Assembly (NCBI GenBank): GCA_963775425.1
Contig: CAVZJB010000007.1
Location: 96,001-160,000 of the forward strand
DNA length: 64,000 bases
Direction of reading: 5' to 3'
DNA from: an uncultured delta proteobacterium
GTDB lineage: Bacteria; Myxococcota; UBA727; VGSZ01
Shown here: piece after piece, positions 3,658 to 11,132 of the stretch
Layout: each line of letters opens with the position of its first letter
Numbering within the stretch: the stretch's first letter is position 1
Program-made: the position numbers and the translations under genes
The notes under the pieces: generated by a model
Told to the model about the DNA's origin: nothing
The model's input: only the letters and a program-made list of their open reading frames with translations
The model's database searches: none

Positions 3658-4181
3658 CACGCTCCGCTGTCTACGTCCCCGGCATCCCCGGCGTCCACGT
3701 CGGCGACGCCGGCGTCGACGGGAGCGCGCGCTTTGTTCCGCAGGCGCTCGCCCTTCTTCAGGTTGCGCCAGAAGACCATCGTGGTCTCGTCGACGCCGCC
3801 GCGGGCCTCGACCGCGCGCAGCACGCTGACGCCGTCGGCGCAGTACGCCTTGGCGCGCTCGCGGGCGGCGCGCTCGTGCACCTTCAACGGGACACGCGGC
3901 TCGGTGGCGGTGGTGGTGACGTCGGCGAGGCGCACCACGCCTCCCGGCACCGGGCCCTCCACCACCTCGGCCTTCACGCGCGCCTCGCACACGCCGCTCG
4001 GTGCGCGATCGGTGTGAACGAGGACGCGCGGCTTCACGACCCGCTCCGGAGCCGTGACACACGCGCTCGCGATGACCAGGGCCGCGAGCGGCGCCGCGCC
4101 GAGGGTGCGTGCCGCGCCGTGGCGACCGCCGCGCGATGCGCGGCCCTGGCAGGGTGCGCGCCCCGCGACGGCCGGGGTCAT
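3657..4181 (-). CDS. Hypothetical lipoprotein
   Basis: C-terminal part of ORF 3657..5711; lipobox-like IASAC; start and stop overlap both neighbours. Confidence 0.6.
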   Translation of the reverse strand: MTPAVAGRAPCQGRASRGGRHGAARTLGAAPLAALVIASACVTAPERVVKPRVLVHTDRAPSGVCEARVKAEVVEGPVPGGVVRLADVTTTATEPRVPLKVHERAARERAKAYCADGVSVLRAVEARGGVDETTMVFWRNLKKGERLRNKARAPVDAGVADVDAGDAGDVDSGA

Positions 4182-6208
4182 CAGGCGCTCTTCTTGTGCT
4201 GCTGCGGCGCCGGCGGCGGCTTCGACTTCTTCCTCGCCGGCTTCCTTTTGTCCTCGGTGCGCGACTTCTCGAGGACGAGCTTCAGGTTCTCCACGGCCTC
4301 CACGGTCTGCTGCTTGTCGAGGCCGAGGATGTCGCGGAGCGCCTCGCCGATGGGGTCGAGGTAGCGGGTGATGTAGTCGCGCTTCTTCTGCTCTTCGGCC
4401 AGGTTCTTGCGGCGGCGCAGGAAGCGTTGCAGGCGGCGGCCCGCCTCCATCACCGCGAGGCGCATCTCCTTGAGCACCTCCGGGTAGTGCGCGATGGCCT
4501 CCTTGGACTCGCTCGTGTACGGCACCCACGCCGACGCGATGTGGATGAGGATGACCATCGGGCCCGTCGGCAGCGCGCCCTTCGCCTGCTGCACCTCGTA
4601 CGAGCGCCACGGCGCGCTCACCACCGCCTTGAACATCGCGCACCCGCTCGCCTGGTAGAGCAGCGGGACGCGGTTGGCGAAGCGGAACACCTTGGCGAGC
4701 TCGTCGCCGGGCAGCGTCTTGGAGTAGAGGATGCCGCACTCGACCTGGAACGGGTTGCCTCGATAGATGGCGGGCGGCCGCGTGACCGCGGTGACGAACA
4801 TGCTCTCGCCGAGGGCGATGACCTTGCCGCCGTCCTCGTCGTTTTGGATGCGCGCCTTGGCCGGCGCCGCCTGGCCATCGCCCGCCTCGCCGTCGCCCGC
4901 CTCGCCGTCGGCGGACGCGCCGTCGCCCGCCTGGCCGTCGGCGGACGCACCGTTCGCCGGCGCCGGCAGCGACGACGGCACCGCGCGCGCGAACGGGAGC
5001 TGGGGCAACGCTTCGCCCTTCTTGCGCTTGCCCGCCGCCTTGGCCGCGGTGGGCGGCGCAGGCGCAGGCGCGGGCTCCTCCTCGTCGGGGGCGACGGCGA
5101 CGGCCGGCTTTTGCTTGCCGAGGGTGAGGACCTCCTCGTCCTCCTCCTTGAGGTTGCCGATGTCGCCGTAGAGCGCGTAGAGCCCCTTGATCAACGCCTC
5201 CTCGCCGATGGGCGACAGGCAGTTGGTGGGCGGAGCCATCAGCTTCTGTTCCTGGATGGCGTTGAAGATCGACTCGCCCTCGGCGCGCGAGAGCTTGCCG
5301 CACTCGGCGTTCGGCGAGATCTTCGCGCGAGCGAGGATCTCGCCGGCGACGGCGGGCGTGACGCGCGAGAAGCTCGTGGTGAGGAACGCCTGCACCTTCT
5401 GCTTGCCGGCGTCGGCGAGCATGCGCTGGAGCGTGCCGAGCTCCACGCCGTGCGGGTGCGGGTTGATCTCCACCGGCTCCTTGGGCAGCTCGTCGATGAC
5501 GCGCACGAGGTCGAGCGTGTCCGTGCTCAGCGGGGGAGCGCCGCGCTCGAGCTGCGTCTTGCTCGCGAGCTTGTGCGTGCGGAAGAGGATGCGCGCGTGC
5601 GGGTTGGCCAGCGACGTCTGCTTCAGGTACGCCTCGATGCCGTGGCGGCCACCCTTCATCTGCGCCGCCATCAGAAGCTCGATGGAGGTGCCCGACGGCT
5701 TCTCCCGCCACCAGTCGCTCTCGGAGATCGCCTCGGACTCGACCTTGGGCTGGTTCTTCGCGGTGTCGATGAAGAGGTGGATGTGGTGCGGCTTGCCGCC
5801 CCGCATCTTGCTGATGATGTTGGCGGGCTCACCGGTGGTCATCTGGGCGTACATGACGGCGGCGGAGATGCCGATGCCCTGCTGACCGCGCGACTGCTTG
5901 AGACGGTGGAACTTGGAGCCGTACAAGAGCTTGGCGAAGATCTTCCCCATCTCGCTCTTGGGGATGCCCGGCCCGTTGTCCTCGATGCGCACCTTGTAGC
6001 GGCCCTCGCCGACCTCGGTGAGCTCGACGACGATCTCGGGCAGGATGCGCGCCTCCTCACACGCGTCGAGCGCGTTGTCCACCGCCTCGCGCACCGCCGT
6101 GAGGAGCGCCTTCTGCGGCGAATCGAAGCCGAGGAGGTGGCGGTTCTTCGAGAAGAACTCGCTCACCGCGATTTCGCGTTGGCGCGGCTGCTTTTCGGCG
6201 CTGGTCAT
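4181..6208 (-). CDS. top6B: DNA topoisomerase VI subunit B
   Basis: SEFFSKNRHLLGF, GHKL motifs EAVDNALDA / DNGPGI / SRGQQGIGIS, NPHA, RFANRVPLLY, VPYTSESKEAIA; start may be 6220. Confidence 0.96.
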   Translation of the reverse strand: MTSAEKQPRQREIAVSEFFSKNRHLLGFDSPQKALLTAVREAVDNALDACEEARILPEIVVELTEVGEGRYKVRIEDNGPGIPKSEMGKIFAKLLYGSKFHRLKQSRGQQGIGISAAVMYAQMTTGEPANIISKMRGGKPHHIHLFIDTAKNQPKVESEAISESDWWREKPSGTSIELLMAAQMKGGRHGIEAYLKQTSLANPHARILFRTHKLASKTQLERGAPPLSTDTLDLVRVIDELPKEPVEINPHPHGVELGTLQRMLADAGKQKVQAFLTTSFSRVTPAVAGEILARAKISPNAECGKLSRAEGESIFNAIQEQKLMAPPTNCLSPIGEEALIKGLYALYGDIGNLKEEDEEVLTLGKQKPAVAVAPDEEEPAPAPAPPTAAKAAGKRKKGEALPQLPFARAVPSSLPAPANGASADGQAGDGASADGEAGDGEAGDGQAAPAKARIQNDEDGGKVIALGESMFVTAVTRPPAIYRGNPFQVECGILYSKTLPGDELAKVFRFANRVPLLYQASGCAMFKAVVSAPWRSYEVQQAKGALPTGPMVILIHIASAWVPYTSESKEAIAHYPEVLKEMRLAVMEAGRRLQRFLRRRKNLAEEQKKRDYITRYLDPIGEALRDILGLDKQQTVEAVENLKLVLEKSRTEDKRKPARKKSKPPPAPQQHKKSA

Positions 6209-6241
6209 GCGCGTCGACATAGCGACACCGGTGATCGTCTG

Positions 6242-7086: not shown

Positions 7087-7683
7087 CTACGGCACGGTGA
7101 AGAAGAGGTCGCCGCTCTCGTCGCTCTCGGCGTCGAGGAGCGCGCCCTGCAGCGTCGCGGTGGCGGCGCCGCTGACGTTGATCTCGAAGGGGCCGCCCGC
7201 GCGCCCGTCGTAATTCACGGCCCAGGCCGTGTACGTGCCGGACTCGAGGCTGCCGTTGAAGAAGATGTTCTCCACGTGCGTGCCGGGGCCGCAGGAGAAG
7301 ATGCACTGGTCGACGTCGAGGAGCCCGCCGCCGGCCTCGGGGTTGCCGTAGTAGATCTCCTCGCCCTGCGGCGTCAGCACGTGCAGGTCGTAGTCCGCGT
7401 CGACCTCGAAGGTCAGCGTGACCTGAAGCACACCGATACCGACGCAGGTCCCGGCTTCGCACTCGGCGCCGGCGCCGCAGTCGTCGTCGGTGCTGCAGTC
7501 GTCGCCGGACGTGGTGGGCGGCGGCGGCTCCGGCGCCGCGGGCGGATCCGGCTCGGGGTCGGGCGCCGGATCCGGCGGCGGATCGGGGACGGAGACCAGG
7601 ACGTCGTCCGCGCACCCGGCGACGGCGGCCGCGGCTCCGAGGGCGATGACGAGGAAGGAGACGGCGCGGACCGGGTGGCGCAT
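7087..7683 (-). CDS. Lipoprotein with YfaP/DUF2135-like domain
   Basis: Lipobox VAGC; Pro-rich linker; Cys-rich module; LQVTLTF..D.DLHV.TP.GEEIYY...LDVD...ENI. Confidence 0.75.
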   Translation of the reverse strand: MRHPVRAVSFLVIALGAAAAVAGCADDVLVSVPDPPPDPAPDPEPDPPAAPEPPPPTTSGDDCSTDDDCGAGAECEAGTCVGIGVLQVTLTFEVDADYDLHVLTPQGEEIYYGNPEAGGGLLDVDQCIFSCGPGTHVENIFFNGSLESGTYTAWAVNYDGRAGGPFEINVSGAATATLQGALLDAESDESGDLFFTVP

Positions 7684-7788
7684 GCAGGGATTGTCGGCGC
7701 CGCCGCGGATGTCGGCTCCGGTCGTTCGGCGGACCGAGGCATCGGTCACACGGCGGGGGCGCGACCGTCCGCGCCCCCGCCGCGCGCG

Positions 7789-8292
7789 CTACTCGCCCTC
7801 TCCCTCGCCCTCTCCCTCGCCCTCGCCTTCGCCTTCACCCTCGCCTTCGCCTTCGCCGGCGGAGGGCGCACAGCTCTGGCCCGCGGGCGCGATGCCGTCG
7901 GCGCAGTCGCAATTCTGGTCGATGCCGTCGCCCTCGGGGTCGTCGGCGCCGGGGTGGATGGAGGCGTCGTCGTCGTTGCAGTCGGGGTTGGGCGCGAGGT
8001 TGTTGACGTCGTCGCAGGCCTCGACGCTGCCGTCCGCGGCCTTGCGGGTGGCGGTGAAGAAGCCGTCGCCGTCGCCGTCGACGGTGTCCGTGCACGGCGG
8101 CAACGGGGGCAGCCCGTAGCAGGCCATGAGCGTGACGGCGAAGGCGCTCCCCCCCGCGAGCATCGTCGCGATCCGGGTCACCCTCTTGAGGGCGCCTGCG
8201 GGCGGCGACGACGACGACGGGCAGCTCGGACAGCTCTGGCTCGACGACGGGATGAAGCCGCCGCACCTCGGGCAGCTCGACAACGAAGGCAT
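7789..8292 (-). CDS. Small Cys-rich lipoprotein with N-terminal zinc ribbon, CYG motif, acidic Cys repeat and (GE)n tail; candidate radical SAM substrate
   Basis: AGGAG RBS before ATG 8292; CPRC...CPSC; hydrophobic stretch ending LMACYG; DGDGDGF...DCND.DASIHPGA...DGIDQNCD repeat. Confidence 0.8.
   Translation of the reverse strand: MPSLSSCPRCGGFIPSSSQSCPSCPSSSSPPAGALKRVTRIATMLAGGSAFAVTLMACYGLPPLPPCTDTVDGDGDGFFTATRKAADGSVEACDDVNNLAPNPDCNDDDASIHPGADDPEGDGIDQNCDCADGIAPAGQSCAPSAGEGEGEGEGEGEGEGEGEGEGE
7792..7857 (-). repeat. (Gly-Glu)11 hexamer repeat
   Basis: 11 GGN-GAR hexamers with synonymous variation. Confidence 0.95.
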
Positions 8293-8521
8293 ATCTCTTC
8301 TCCTTGGATGAGCGCTCGCGCGCTGCCCCCGCCGACTCAAGGCACGTGCCACCTGCGCCTCACGGTCCACGCGCCGGCGTTCCCCGTCGGCGGCCTCGCG
8401 GAAAGTTGAGACGCGGCCGCCGCGCGCGACGCGGGTGTCGTGCGTGGGCGCACGCGAGGCCCGGCGCGCCTCGACGGGGGGCCGGCGCGCCGCCTGGCAT
8501 GCGCCGTGAAGAAACGACGGC

Positions 8522-9763
8522 ATGGTCAAACGCCGCCTCGAGGTTTTGCCCGACGAGCACTTCCCCGCGTACGTCGTCTGGGAGCTGACGCTGCGCTGTG
8601 ATCAGGGCTGCGCGCACTGCGGCTCCCGCGCCGGCGCGCGACGCCCCGACGAGCTCACCACCGACGAGGCGCTGCGCGTCGTCGACGAGCTGAAGGACAT
8701 GGGTGCGCAGGAGGTCGTGGTCATCGGCGGCGAGGCGTACCTGCACGAGGGCTTCCTCGACATCGTCCGCGCCCTCGCGCGCGCGGGCATCCGCCCGATG
8801 ATGACCACGGGCGGCCGCGGCGTCACGGCGGCGCTCGCGAAGCAGATGAAAGAGGCGGGCCTCATCGGCGTGTCCGTCTCCGTCGACGGCTTGCGCGAAC
8901 AGCACGACGCCATCCGCCGCGCCGCCGGCAGCTTCGATTCCGCCATGACCGCGCTCGATCACCTCGCCGCCGCCGGCATCCGCATCGCCGCCAACACCAA
9001 CGTCAACCGCAAGAACGCTCCCGTCCTCGAGGAGCTCTTCGTCCTGCTGCGCGACAAGGGCGTGCGCGCGTGGCAGGTCCAGATCACCGCGCCGCTCGGG
9101 CGCGCGGCCGACCGCCCGCAGATGCTGCTTCAGCCCTACGACCTCCTCGACGTCGTCCCGCGCGTCGCGGCGCTCAAGCGGCGCGCGTTCGCGAGCGGCA
9201 TGCTGCTCATGCCCGGCAACAACCTCGGCTACTTCGGCGTGCACGAGGCCGCGCTGCGCTCACCGCGGCAGGGCGGGCGCGACCACTGGCGCGGCTGCCA
9301 GGCGGGCAAGCTCGTCATGGGCATCGAGAGCGACGGCGCGGTGAAGGGCTGCCCCTCGCTGCAGCCCGCGTACATCGGCGGCAACGTGAGGCGGCGCGCG
9401 CTCCGCGACATCTGGGACGGCGCACCCGAGCTCGCATTCACGCGGCGCCGCGGCGTCGAGGACCTCTGGGGCTTCTGTCGCAGTTGCGACTTCGCCGACA
9501 CCTGCCTCGGCGGCTGCTCCTTCACCGCCCACGCCGTCTTCGGCCGCGCCGGAAACAACCCCTACTGCCACCACCGCGCCTCGATGTTCGCGAGGGAGGG
9601 GAAGCGCGAGCGCCTCGTGCCCGCGGCCGCGGCGCCGGGGACGCCCTTCGATCACGGCCTGTTCGACGTCGTCGTCGAGGACGCCGGCGCCCCCGAGCCC
9701 GTGGCCCACGCCGACCTCGTGGCCATCACACGGGCGCCGCGCAAGCGCCCCCGCGCCGCATGA
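8522..9763 (+). CDS. Radical SAM/SPASM peptide maturase (TIGR03913/PlpX splicease-like)
   Basis: VWELTLRCDQGCAHCGSRAG (CxxxCxxC), LLQPY, GNNLGYFG, SPASM GCQAG..GCPSL..CRSC..CLGGC..NNPYCHHR. Confidence 0.9.
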   Translation: MVKRRLEVLPDEHFPAYVVWELTLRCDQGCAHCGSRAGARRPDELTTDEALRVVDELKDMGAQEVVVIGGEAYLHEGFLDIVRALARAGIRPMMTTGGRGVTAALAKQMKEAGLIGVSVSVDGLREQHDAIRRAAGSFDSAMTALDHLAAAGIRIAANTNVNRKNAPVLEELFVLLRDKGVRAWQVQITAPLGRAADRPQMLLQPYDLLDVVPRVAALKRRAFASGMLLMPGNNLGYFGVHEAALRSPRQGGRDHWRGCQAGKLVMGIESDGAVKGCPSLQPAYIGGNVRRRALRDIWDGAPELAFTRRRGVEDLWGFCRSCDFADTCLGGCSFTAHAVFGRAGNNPYCHHRASMFAREGKRERLVPAAAAPGTPFDHGLFDVVVEDAGAPEPVAHADLVAITRAPRKRPRAA

Positions 9764-9772
9764 TGGCGACGA

Positions 9773-10510
9773 TCAGACCTTCAGCGAGAACGGCGTGAAG
9801 TTGGTGTCGCGGTCGTAATAGTCCTCGTGCTCCGCCTTCTTGAAGAACGCGACGATGCGATAGGTGAGCGGCGTGGCCACCGCCTCCCAGCCGACCTTGA
9901 CGCAGTAGTTGGCGATCATCACCTTCACGAGGAGCGAGTTGGGCATCCAGCTCTCACCGTAGAAGGCGAGGGGATAGAAGATGCAGGTGTCGACGGCCTC
10001 GCCCGCGATGGTGGAGCCGATGGTGCGCGTCCACAGCCAGCGGCCGCTCGTGAGCACCTTCATCTTGGCGAGCACGAAGGAGTTGGCGAACTCGCCGCAG
10101 AAGTAGCCGATGAGCGACGCGAGCGCGACGCGCCACGTGGAGCCGAAGGCCCACTCGATCATCGCCTGGTCCTTGAACTCCGCCGCCGGCGGCAGGTGCA
10201 CGACGACGAAGCTCTGGAGCGAGGCGAACGCGAGCGCCGCGAAGCCCGCCCACACCACGCGGCGCGAGCGCGCGTAGCCGTAGACCTCGGTGAGGATGTC
10301 GCCGAACAGGTAGCTGATGGGGAAGAACAGGTTGCCGGCGCCGAACGCGACCAGCCCGATCACCGGGAGATCCACCTGCGCGATCTTGCGGACGCCGATG
10401 AGGTTCGAGCACAGCAACACGCAGACGAACGCGCCGAGCACGAGGTCGTAGTACTTGTACTGACGACGCGCGGGCAGCGCGGGTTCCGGCGGCGGCGGGG
10501 TCGGCATCAC
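9773..10510 (-). CDS. yhhQ: Queuosine precursor transporter (YhhQ/VUT family)
   Basis: FPISYLFGDILTEVYG, RTIGSTIAGE.VDT; multiple TM helices. Confidence 0.88.
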   Translation of the reverse strand: MMPTPPPPEPALPARRQYKYYDLVLGAFVCVLLCSNLIGVRKIAQVDLPVIGLVAFGAGNLFFPISYLFGDILTEVYGYARSRRVVWAGFAALAFASLQSFVVVHLPPAAEFKDQAMIEWAFGSTWRVALASLIGYFCGEFANSFVLAKMKVLTSGRWLWTRTIGSTIAGEAVDTCIFYPLAFYGESWMPNSLLVKVMIANYCVKVGWEAVATPLTYRIVAFFKKAEHEDYYDRDTNFTPFSLKV

Positions 10511-10604
10511 CGCTCGTGTATCACCACGCCGTCAGGAATTCCGCCTCCGCGAGCGGATGGGACCCCGGTTTCATGGCCCCCCCGGCCGGAGCATACTGCG
10601 GCGC

Positions 10605-11132
10605 ATGAGCCTTCCTTCCGTCTTCAACTTCAAGCAGTGGATCGACGAGCACCGGCACCTGTTGAAGCCCCCGGTGGGGAACTACGAGGTGTACCCGAAC
10701 CACGAGTTCATCATCATGGTCGTCGGCGGACCCAACTCGCGCACCGACTACCACGTGGACCCCGCGGAGGAGTTCTTCTACATGGTCGAGGGCGACATGA
10801 CCTTGCGCGTCGTCGACGAGGGCAAGATCAAGGACATCGAGATCAAGCAGGGCGAGATCTTCCTGTTGCCCGCGAACGTGCCGCACTCGCCGCAGCGACG
10901 CGCGAACACGGTGGGGCTCGTCGTCGAGCGCGCACGCAAGTCCCTCGAGATCGACATGTTCCAGTGGTACTGCGAGAAGTGCTCGAGCAAGCTGTACGAA
11001 GAACGGCTTCAGCTCACGGACATCGTCAAGCAGCTCCCGCCCGTCTTCGAGCGCTACGAGTCCAAGCTGGACAACCGCACCTGCCGCGACTGCGGCTGGG
11101 TGATGCCCCCGAGGGCGGAAGCCGCCACCTGA
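10605..11132 (+). CDS. nbaC: 3-hydroxyanthranilate 3,4-dioxygenase
   Basis: WIDEHRHLLKPPVGN, VGGPNSRTDYH, EEFFY, PHSPQR, two CxxC motifs. Confidence 0.96.
   Translation: MSLPSVFNFKQWIDEHRHLLKPPVGNYEVYPNHEFIIMVVGGPNSRTDYHVDPAEEFFYMVEGDMTLRVVDEGKIKDIEIKQGEIFLLPANVPHSPQRRANTVGLVVERARKSLEIDMFQWYCEKCSSKLYEERLQLTDIVKQLPPVFERYESKLDNRTCRDCGWVMPPRAEAAT

Follow-up and report, generated by a model that had tools for sequence, protein, structure and literature searches.

The closest described systems to the one reported here are those of the spliceases, radical S-adenosylmethionine (SAM)/SPASM enzymes that excise tyramine at an invariant Tyr-Gly placed after a free residue X (PMC11414181, PMC9811515, PMC11626197). 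They are described as the only known route to ribosomal α-keto-β-amino acids, and the native products of their pathways as largely unknown (PMC9811515). PlpX, the founding tyramine splicease, belongs to InterPro family IPR026482 (PMC11002830). Two kinds of splicease system are of interest here: the type I spliceotide systems of Pleurocapsa (PlpX/PlpA and PcpX/PcpA), and the binary type II systems of Rheinheimera (RhaX/RhaA and RcsX/RasX), made up of an enzyme and a substrate with no Y protein. A further related group is that of the DAG-RiPPs (RiPP, a peptide made by the ribosome and modified after translation), such as DybA, in which oxidative enzymes that depend on multinuclear non-heme iron (MNIOs; ChrH/DybH) modify a precursor bearing a lipoprotein signal, and Lgt, Lsp and Lnt replace the dedicated protease and exporter (PMC13056109). 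Here we describe a two-gene locus in a 64,000-nt stretch of DNA (the window) from an uncultured delta proteobacterium of the Myxococcota (contig CAVZJB010000007.1, positions 96,001 to 160,000). A radical SAM/SPASM enzyme of the splicease superclade (P0002) is encoded at this locus divergently from a small open reading frame (ORF) for a predicted lipoprotein precursor (P0001), which starts with a zinc ribbon and carries a Cys-Tyr-Gly motif at its predicted lipidation site.

We consider it somewhat better than an even bet (probability about 0.55) that P0001 and P0002 form an enzyme–substrate module in which tyramine would be spliced out at C58-Y59-G60 and the precursor would then be exported as a lipoprotein. 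The pairing of the two genes, the conservation of their motifs, a splicease-type site grammar running through the superfamily and a confident docking model were all computed here. Like PlpX and PcpX, P0002 is a radical SAM/SPASM enzyme with TIGR04103 as its best model and an X-Tyr-Gly motif as its predicted target. Unlike those systems, the pair has no Y partner gene with a RiPP recognition element (RRE) and no Nif11 or nitrile-hydratase leader, and the score of the enzyme lies below the family cut-off. The missing Y/RRE partner does not exclude splicease function, since binary types without Y have been described (PMC11414181). P0001 also differs from the PlpX and PcpX substrates in being a (predicted) exported protein of 167 residues that bears a zinc ribbon as well as a signal-like segment, and in which X is an invariant Cys and the predicted lipidation site. 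With the Rheinheimera type II systems the module shares the enzyme-plus-substrate arrangement without a Y protein. In the AlphaFold models reported for the latter, a leader element of the substrate fills the docking site of the enzyme (PMC11414181); likewise, in the P0001/P0002 model the substrate docks on the enzyme with its own ribbon and with the last part of its hydrophobic stretch. The docking element is, however, a zinc ribbon with a β-strand-like hydrophobic end rather than a leader helix, P0001 has a signal/lipobox, and the host belongs to the Myxococcota.

The proposed RiPP-type modification of a lipoprotein-pathway precursor is what the module has in common with the DAG-RiPPs. The enzyme is an MNIO in the latter and a radical SAM protein here, the DAG-RiPPs have no zinc ribbon, and they are modified at residues other than the lipidated Cys, whereas in P0001 one residue would be both. 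The terms ‘radical SAM’, ‘rSAM’ and ‘splice’ are absent from the text of the DAG-RiPP paper (PMC13056109). The module may combine the workings of a binary (type II-like) spliceotide system with the RiPP–lipoprotein logic of the DAG-RiPPs. Its new elements are that the proposed splice site falls on the predicted lipidation site, and that the leader is a zinc ribbon. Among the matches listed in the literature searched, nothing tied spliceases to lipoproteins, lipoboxes or zinc ribbons; the survey by Scott et al. (Chem 2022) and its supplements were outside that search. A search for publications naming TIGR04103 or TIGR03913 found none.

The enzyme gene (positions 8522–9763, + strand) codes for 413 residues and matches PF04055 and PF13186 in addition to TIGR04103 and TIGR03913. 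Its radical SAM cluster motif, C26-x3-C30-x2-C33 (8597–8620, +; read from the codons), and the seven Cys of its SPASM region (C259, C277, C319, C322, C328, C332 and C349; 9296–9568, +; PF13186 match at residues 259–323) are invariant in all 44 aligned relatives. The initial annotation, made from the sequence without database searches, had named a set of splicease-type motifs in this protein; all were found in the translation, as WELTLRCDQGCAHCGSRAG, LLQPY, GNNLGYFG and NNPYC. Among the NCBIfam models, TIGR04103 (nif11-class peptide radical SAM maturase 3, rSAM_nif11_3) scored highest, with 439.7 bits, followed by TIGR03913 (GDL motif peptide-associated maturase) with 392.7 bits over profile positions 16–398 of 477. 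The next families were TIGR04133 (157 bits), AhbD (156 bits) and NirJ (120 bits), so that the two models put forward in that annotation were far ahead of all others. We take TIGR04103 to be the family that InterPro lists as IPR026482. Both scores lie below the curated cut-offs, and P0002 is therefore a relative, not a filed member, of the two families; in the case of TIGR03913 the match stops short of the ribbon region at the C-terminus of the profile. The third-best match, TIGR04133, is far more distant (157 vs 440 bits); its short name, ‘rSAM_w_lipo’, presumably refers to a radical SAM enzyme paired with a lipoprotein. An identity as a non-peptide radical SAM enzyme of the heme d1/Ahb type, clustering with which the initial annotation had named as speaking against a splicease, was rejected on score (116–156 bits vs 440; AhbD and NirJ, 156 and 120 bits). 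Inspection of the PDB identified no close homologue of P0002, the best matches being SkfB (E 7e-17) and then PqqE.

A quick maximum-likelihood tree was built from 119 rows, comprising 88 enzymes cut from the loci studied, the window enzyme and 30 representatives picked from the 150 best matches (fragments and most low scorers were left out). P0002 fell in a 34-row clade of its own (Shimodaira–Hasegawa-like approximate likelihood ratio test, SH-aLRT, 100), next to a weakly joined group of 59 rows (SH-aLRT 85). Both lay within a 109-row clade (SH-aLRT 100) that comprised the P0002 clade, TIGR04103-like sequences and a true TIGR03913 member, P0176 (771 bits on TIGR03913), which branched further out than the 59-row group; the other SPASM enzymes fell outside. 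The grouping suggested in the initial annotation was with PlpX; the grouping seen, in a tree without PlpX among its rows, is with TIGR04103-like and true TIGR03913 sequences. Relatives of P0002 at 65–80% identity are numerous in Myxococcota, including isolates of Sorangium, Archangium, Cystobacter, Polyangium and Corallococcus, and their only public name is ‘radical SAM protein’. Database relatives number in the thousands, making up a large unannotated family, and 26 of 201 sampled genomes of Myxococcota carried an enzyme of the superclade (E ≤ 1e-90 to TIGR03913). The window genome itself has a second splicease-like gene on contig 17 (131653–132870, −; L021, L118), which belongs to the 59-row group. 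Its product is 47% identical to P0002 and scores 685.2 bits on TIGR04103 (cut-off 725); a pattern search revealed no zinc-ribbon–YG ORF within ∼9 kb of it.

The substrate gene (7789–8292, −) codes for 167 residues. Its ATG, at position 8292, is preceded by AAGGAG with a 7-nt spacer, and this start is backed by the alignment of 28 N-terminal modules (N-modules). The zinc ribbon spans residues 7–24 (8221–8274, −), with CPRC at residues 7–10 and CPSC at 21–24 (CPRC-x10-CPSC); it is supported by its invariant Cys, a profile alignment (hhalign) and the complex model described below. Residues 25–57 (8122–8220, −) comprise a Ser/Pro-rich segment carrying K36, R37 and R41, which would form a basic n-region, and an uncharged hydrophobic stretch (h-region) of 16 residues (I42–A57) that ends in L-M-A-C58. 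Directly after C58 comes Y59-G60-L-P-P, so that in L55-M56-A57-C58-Y59-G60 (8113–8130, −; codons checked) a lipobox-like LMAC is fused to an X-Tyr-Gly motif. A Cys/Asp motif of the MopE ‘putative metal-binding’ type follows at residues 104–129 (7906–7983, −). PF11617 (Cu-binding_MopE) matched it with 25.9 bits (E 1.2e-5), below the gathering score of 27; most homologues of P0001 have a precomputed PF11617 assignment. The protein ends in an acidic tail of exactly 11 GE repeats, (GE)11, at residues 146–167 (7792–7857, −), and GE-rich tails were also present in the orthologues at loci L003 and L004. A divergent intergenic region of 229 bp (8293–8521) separates the two genes. Every item of the layout given in the initial annotation, including a divergent region of roughly 230 bp, was correct.

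None of the 49 homologues of P0001 (E ≤ 0.01) bears a public label other than ‘putative metal-binding motif-containing protein’, no NCBIfam family matched the protein, and NCBIfam and Pfam hold no family for its N-module or for the eight sister-clade substrates searched, the ribbon giving weak or sub-threshold matches to Pfam zinc ribbons only. A protein atlas search with residues 1–70 gave best scores of 0.79–0.81, below lead level. The recurring part of the family is the N-terminal segment of 66 residues, aligned here for 28 loci, in all of which C7, C10, C21, C24, A57, C58, Y59 and G60 were invariant. In a set of 77 sequences (the 28 aligned rows plus the 49 database matches), CYG was present in 73, and in 60 of these it stood in the context TLMAC. 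Three of the four sequences lacking CYG matched only the MopE part; the fourth, P0031, reads TSAC-FQTVVA-IYG. Across the family, the residues linking ribbon and h-region carry a median net charge of +3, and the uncharged run that leads up to the Cys has a median length of 17 residues (12–13 residues in 16 of 73 members); the lipobox Cys lies 39 to 59 residues after the first Cys of the ribbon. The C-terminal part is unconserved, and relatives from low-GC genomes of 2–3.4 Mb carry short unrelated tails in its place. At three loci (L006–L008; G019, G027 and G022) in low-GC genomes of 2.4–3.4 Mb assigned to the same taxonomic order, the genes are co-directional and the substrates, of ∼96–103 residues, have no MopE motif. 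A consistent twin-arginine motif was not seen by eye in the 28-row alignment, and a Tat signal was rejected.

Two further loci depart from the usual arrangement. At L004 (G009 contig 597) there are two tandem substrate ORFs, one with MTMMAC-YG and the other with ALTGC-TLPIA-AYG-LPPC; in the second, X is Ala and the lipobox Cys is shifted six residues upstream. At L010 (G003 contig 81) the enzyme match covers residues 192–408 only and includes an in-frame TGA, and the substrate frame becomes rich in Arg immediately behind CYGL, which may reflect either decay of the pair or assembly errors. In the L004 paralogue and in P0031, where X is a residue other than Cys, a Cys still closes the h-region. 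This points to the Cys-ending h-region and the Tyr-Gly as two separate constraints that are superimposed in P0001.

The substrate gene was found adjacent to the enzyme gene, either divergent or co-directional, at 28 of 34 complete or partial orthologous loci. In related genomes, eight of nine orthologous enzyme loci had an adjacent ORF with the same N-module; the ninth locus ends at a contig boundary, and its partner lies on the contig carrying the other enzyme fragment. In named genome records with enzymes 60–68% identical to P0002, the substrate ORF lay within 3 kb at 20 of 25 loci, 14 of them co-directional (the ORF immediately preceding the enzyme gene) and six divergent as in the window. 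In all five genomes without an adjacent copy, a whole-genome search located a zinc-ribbon TLMACYG ORF elsewhere (53–73 bits). An ORF with the predicted series CxxC..CxxC, hydrophobic stretch and CYG was thus present, adjacent or elsewhere, in every orthologue-bearing genome tested. Further, the substrate module (E ≤ 1e-5) was detected in 10 of 41 related genomes, exactly the 10 that have an orthologous enzyme (eight full length, with 511–939 bits, and two fragments). Since these genomes are kin, spanning four family groups, the co-occurrence does not amount to a statistical test. In the window genome itself, a single strong copy of the substrate module was detected. None of the four other neighbours of the pair in the window (a 220-residue predicted lipoprotein, a crotonase-like ORF, a Vut_1/queuosine-precursor transporter and a 3-hydroxyanthranilate dioxygenase) recurred at any other locus examined, so that the conserved unit consists of the P0001 and P0002 genes alone. 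Family scans of these neighbours agreed with the earlier statement that no RRE/PqqD, protease or exporter gene is adjacent.

A sister clade of enzymes 50–58% identical to P0002 (loci L050–L104, e.g. L073, L056, L063 and L098) helps to tell which residue is the target. At 43 of its 55 loci, 56 zinc-ribbon ORFs were found, with one to four substrate genes per locus; tandem arrays of two to four, placed directly downstream of the enzyme gene, are frequent. Their products have, in this order, a ribbon (typically CxxCxRHV...CPFC), a hydrophobic stretch, a Cys, a gap and then one to five YG sites in low-complexity sequence. The Cys stands at the end of the h-region in all 56 proteins, and in 49 of them it is lipobox-like ([..][..][AGS]C, as in LAGC, LTGC or ALAAC); the gap from Cys to YG has a median of 41 residues (range 0–202). 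The 136 YG sites follow the pattern [P/A]-X-Y-G-[A/G/I/L]-P-P, with P or A at position -2 in 113, P at +2 in 101 and P at +3 in 83. X varies widely (L39, A32, P17, V16, R8, F6, E6, M5, I4 and others, with D, H and C once each). As far as sequence can tell, this grammar matches the splicease signature of an invariant Tyr-Gly after a free X, and A-C-Y-G-L-P-P in P0001 appears to be a site of this kind in which no gap is left between lipobox and YG motif. The survey by Scott et al. is reported to have found YG-rich neighbours of PlpX-like enzymes in 189 genera, with 27 pairs confirmed (PMC10849128), and the sister clade with its YG repeats may thus already be catalogued there. Putative substrates without a ribbon were seen in Myxococcota as well: helical proteins with RPLYGVFI twice, beside enzymes with ∼580–590 bits on TIGR03913 (L120, L121), and a protein with PPIAMRYGLP five times (L130).

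The variable X also bears on whether the pair is real and the chemistry another one, such as a thioether or C–C cross-link at Cys58 or Tyr59, an epimerization or a hydroxylation, with no excision of tyramine. SPASM enzymes are versatile, and the NCBIfam matches of P0002 include sactipeptide, ranthipeptide-like and PQQ maturases; P0002 forms a clade of its own, below both splicease-related cut-offs, and in that clade the Cys is invariant, unlike the X of known splice sites. The sister clade and two paralogues, however, have a variable X, a distant Cys and a fixed Y-G-x-P-P, which argues that Tyr-Gly, and not Cys, is the common target, and the scores (440 vs at most 157 bits) place P0002 with the splicease-related models and not with the maturases that form cross-links. 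We consider a different chemistry unlikely.

How the enzyme may recognize the substrate was approached with a model of the complex, built from P0002 (alignment of 44), residues 1–66 of P0001 (alignment of 28), three 4Fe-4S clusters and SAM. The complex scored 0.96, and the best of three controls 0.00; the mark used for such scores is reached by 58 of 80 solved complexes vs two of 110 mismatched pairs, a calibration that is only rough here, because our own alignments were supplied and ligands were included. The runs shared at least 97% of contacts, and the partner had a predicted local distance difference test (pLDDT) value of at least 73. In the model, the interface is formed by substrate residues 48–66, threaded into the enzyme barrel, and by much of residues 1–25, ribbon included. 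Substrate residues 53–55 pair with residues 4–6 at the N-terminus of the enzyme, Y59 and G60 lie at enzyme residue 19, just ahead of the cluster motif, and L61 and P62 lie at residues 93–95, 118, 156–158, 183–185 and 228–230. Solved complexes of radical SAM/SPASM enzymes with peptides exist; in the PDB, none was close in sequence to P0002.

A counterpart of the ribbon was found in the enzymes of the TIGR03913 type, which share the 109-row clade with P0002. One sister-clade substrate ribbon weakly matched profile positions 428–461 of TIGR03913 (E 0.003), and all 12 TIGR03913-type enzymes inspected had a C-terminal CxxC-x10-CxxC ribbon of the same spacing. These enzymes (P0176, P0180, P0183, P0186–P0188, P0193, P0195, P0199, P0203, P0206 and P0228) have a helical tail after the ribbon. 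An hhalign comparison of the 28 N-modules with the 12 enzyme tails gave a probability of 95.9% (E 5.3e-9, 29 columns), the two ribbon consensus lines being nearly identical (..L..C..C..f......CPHC). If this match is real, the same small domain would sit on the enzyme, at its C-terminus, in one family and on the substrate, at its N-terminus, in the other, as expected of a docking or activating element. The enzyme-fused ribbon would then parallel the splicease reported to have become leader-independent upon fusion of a leader-derived helix (PMC11414181). Together with the complex model, the ribbon of the TIGR03913 enzymes lends support to the suggestion of the initial annotation that the zinc ribbon acts as the recognition element.

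The reading of P0001 as a lipoprotein gains in turn from those relatives that keep the lipobox Cys when YG moves 1–200 residues downstream. In P0001, positions -3, -1 and +1 fit the lipobox [LVI][ASTVI][GAS]C. The part after C58 is Cys-rich and has a motif typical of exported myxobacterial proteins, and the window genome carries lspA (84.3 bits) and lnt (277.1 bits), both above the cut-offs. An alternative is that splicing occurs and lipidation does not, the N-terminal segment being an uncleaved N-in signal anchor that leaves the ribbon in the cytoplasm and C58 as X at the outer end of the helix. The Cys at residue 58 and the Met at -2, both atypical for a lipobox, the folded ribbon ahead of the signal, and the D or E found next to the Cys in seven of 56 sister-clade proteins would all fit such an anchor. 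It accounts poorly for the lipobox-like Cys with which the h-region ends in 49 of 56 proteins of the sister clade, even where YG is up to 202 residues away, and for the h-regions of 12–13 residues in 16 of 73 members, which are short for a stable membrane span; we see it as improbable, to much the same degree as a different chemistry. Still less probable is that splicing and lipidation are mutually blocking alternatives, the enzyme deciding between a lipid-anchored form and a differently localized one. Both motifs do share one residue in 26 of the 27 clade-A ORFs, and a β-amino acid at +1 would alter the backbone beside the scissile bond of LspA, but the sister clade keeps the two motifs apart (median gap of 41 residues), and competition cannot therefore be the general logic of the superfamily. 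Finally, that the two genes are neighbours by chance, the small ORF being an unrelated secreted MopE-motif protein as the public annotation of its homologues might suggest, can be set aside, given that both partners occur in the same 10 of 41 genomes, that the linkage persists through two gene orders, that both genes are kept in five of five unlinked cases, that it is the N-module and not the MopE part that is conserved (small-genome relatives swap the C-terminus), and that the complex scored 0.96 vs 0.00 for the controls.

For the enzyme–substrate module that we favour, we infer how splicing and lipidation would proceed, in which order, and to what biological end, as follows. In the cytoplasm, P0002 would dock the precursor via the zinc ribbon at its N-terminus and the last part of its hydrophobic stretch, and A57-C58-Y59-G60-L-P-P would be threaded into its active site. 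Like PlpX-type spliceases, it would excise a tyramine equivalent (C8H9NO) from Tyr59. Splicing would precede export, because the enzyme is cytoplasmic, and the ribbon may hold the precursor back until then. The N-terminal segment would double as an oversized lipoprotein signal peptide, consisting of the ribbon plus basic n-region, the 16-residue h-region and the LMAC lipobox. Sec, Lgt, LspA and Lnt would export the protein, lipidate Cys58 and remove the ribbon-bearing leader; as this general lipoprotein pathway would perform both export and leader removal, it would replace a dedicated RiPP protease and exporter. The product would be a membrane-anchored protein with an electrophilic ketoamide on its lipidated first residue, followed by a Cys/Asp-rich part, possibly binding metal or calcium, and an acidic tail.

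Several observations weigh against this scheme. P0002 lies under both equivalog cut-offs (439.7 vs 725 bits for TIGR04103, 392.7 vs 591.75 for TIGR03913), and the tree includes no experimentally characterized splicease, so that the tie to PlpX is indirect and runs via family models. Splicing at a Cys-Tyr-Gly site is not documented in the literature searched. The complex score expresses the confidence of a model and is not a measurement, and the hhalign match, made without a negative control, is one between zinc ribbons, which are short domains dominated by Cys. With respect to lipidation, a lipobox Cys usually falls within the first 35–40 residues, and that of P0001, preceded by the ribbon and for that reason late, is at residue 58. 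The Met at -2 is atypical, lying outside the classical lipobox residue set (PMC12462473), and it is unusual for a signal peptide to carry a folded zinc ribbon. Seven of the 56 sister-clade proteins fail the lipobox pattern, with D or E beside the Cys, the lgt-like gene of the window genome scored 110.6 bits, slightly below the cut-off of 118.9, and an uncleaved signal anchor may fit the sequence of P0001 equally well. As for the role of the product, our guess is that it would serve as a membrane-tethered covalent trap or inhibitor of Ser/Cys hydrolases, either in the envelope or secreted; synthetic and recombinant spliceotides have been reported to inhibit Ser/Cys proteases (PMC9811515, PMC11626197).

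A more tentative proposal, which we hold to be rather less probable than not, concerns the new N-terminus. After cleavage by LspA, the lipoprotein would present an α-amino-ketone/ketoamide warhead at the membrane, trapping nucleophiles, or condensing unless it is N-acylated. The ribbon, for its part, would be a portable splicease-docking module, placed on the enzyme (TIGR03913 type) or on the substrate signal peptide, where it might also delay export until the enzyme has acted. If the module works as proposed, splicease chemistry would take place on the lipid-bearing residue of a lipoprotein, within a large unannotated family, and the hybrid RiPP–lipoprotein logic would extend from MNIOs to radical SAM enzymes. 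It would also be a case of natural splicing of a full-size exported protein, and the zinc ribbon plus ∼20 residues could provide a compact recognition tag for protein engineering. The module further raises the question of whether Lgt, LspA and Lnt can process a β-amino ketoamide at +1.

The genes around the pair in the window are of various kinds. The 220-residue ORF (7087–7749, −) lies 39 bp downstream of P0001 and begins with a signal-like segment that ends in VAGC, besides which it has a Pro/Asp-rich linker and a part rich in Cys; it has only a faint match to DUF7107 and is not conserved beside the module elsewhere. Two genes flanking the enzyme gene, seemingly unrelated to the module, code for the queuosine-precursor transporter (9773–10510, −; TIGR00697, 112 bits) and the 3-hydroxyanthranilate 3,4-dioxygenase (10557–11132, +; NF009763, 257 bits). 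On the other side, an ORF of 679 residues (4181–6220, −) resembles, by eye, subunit B of DNA topoisomerase VI.

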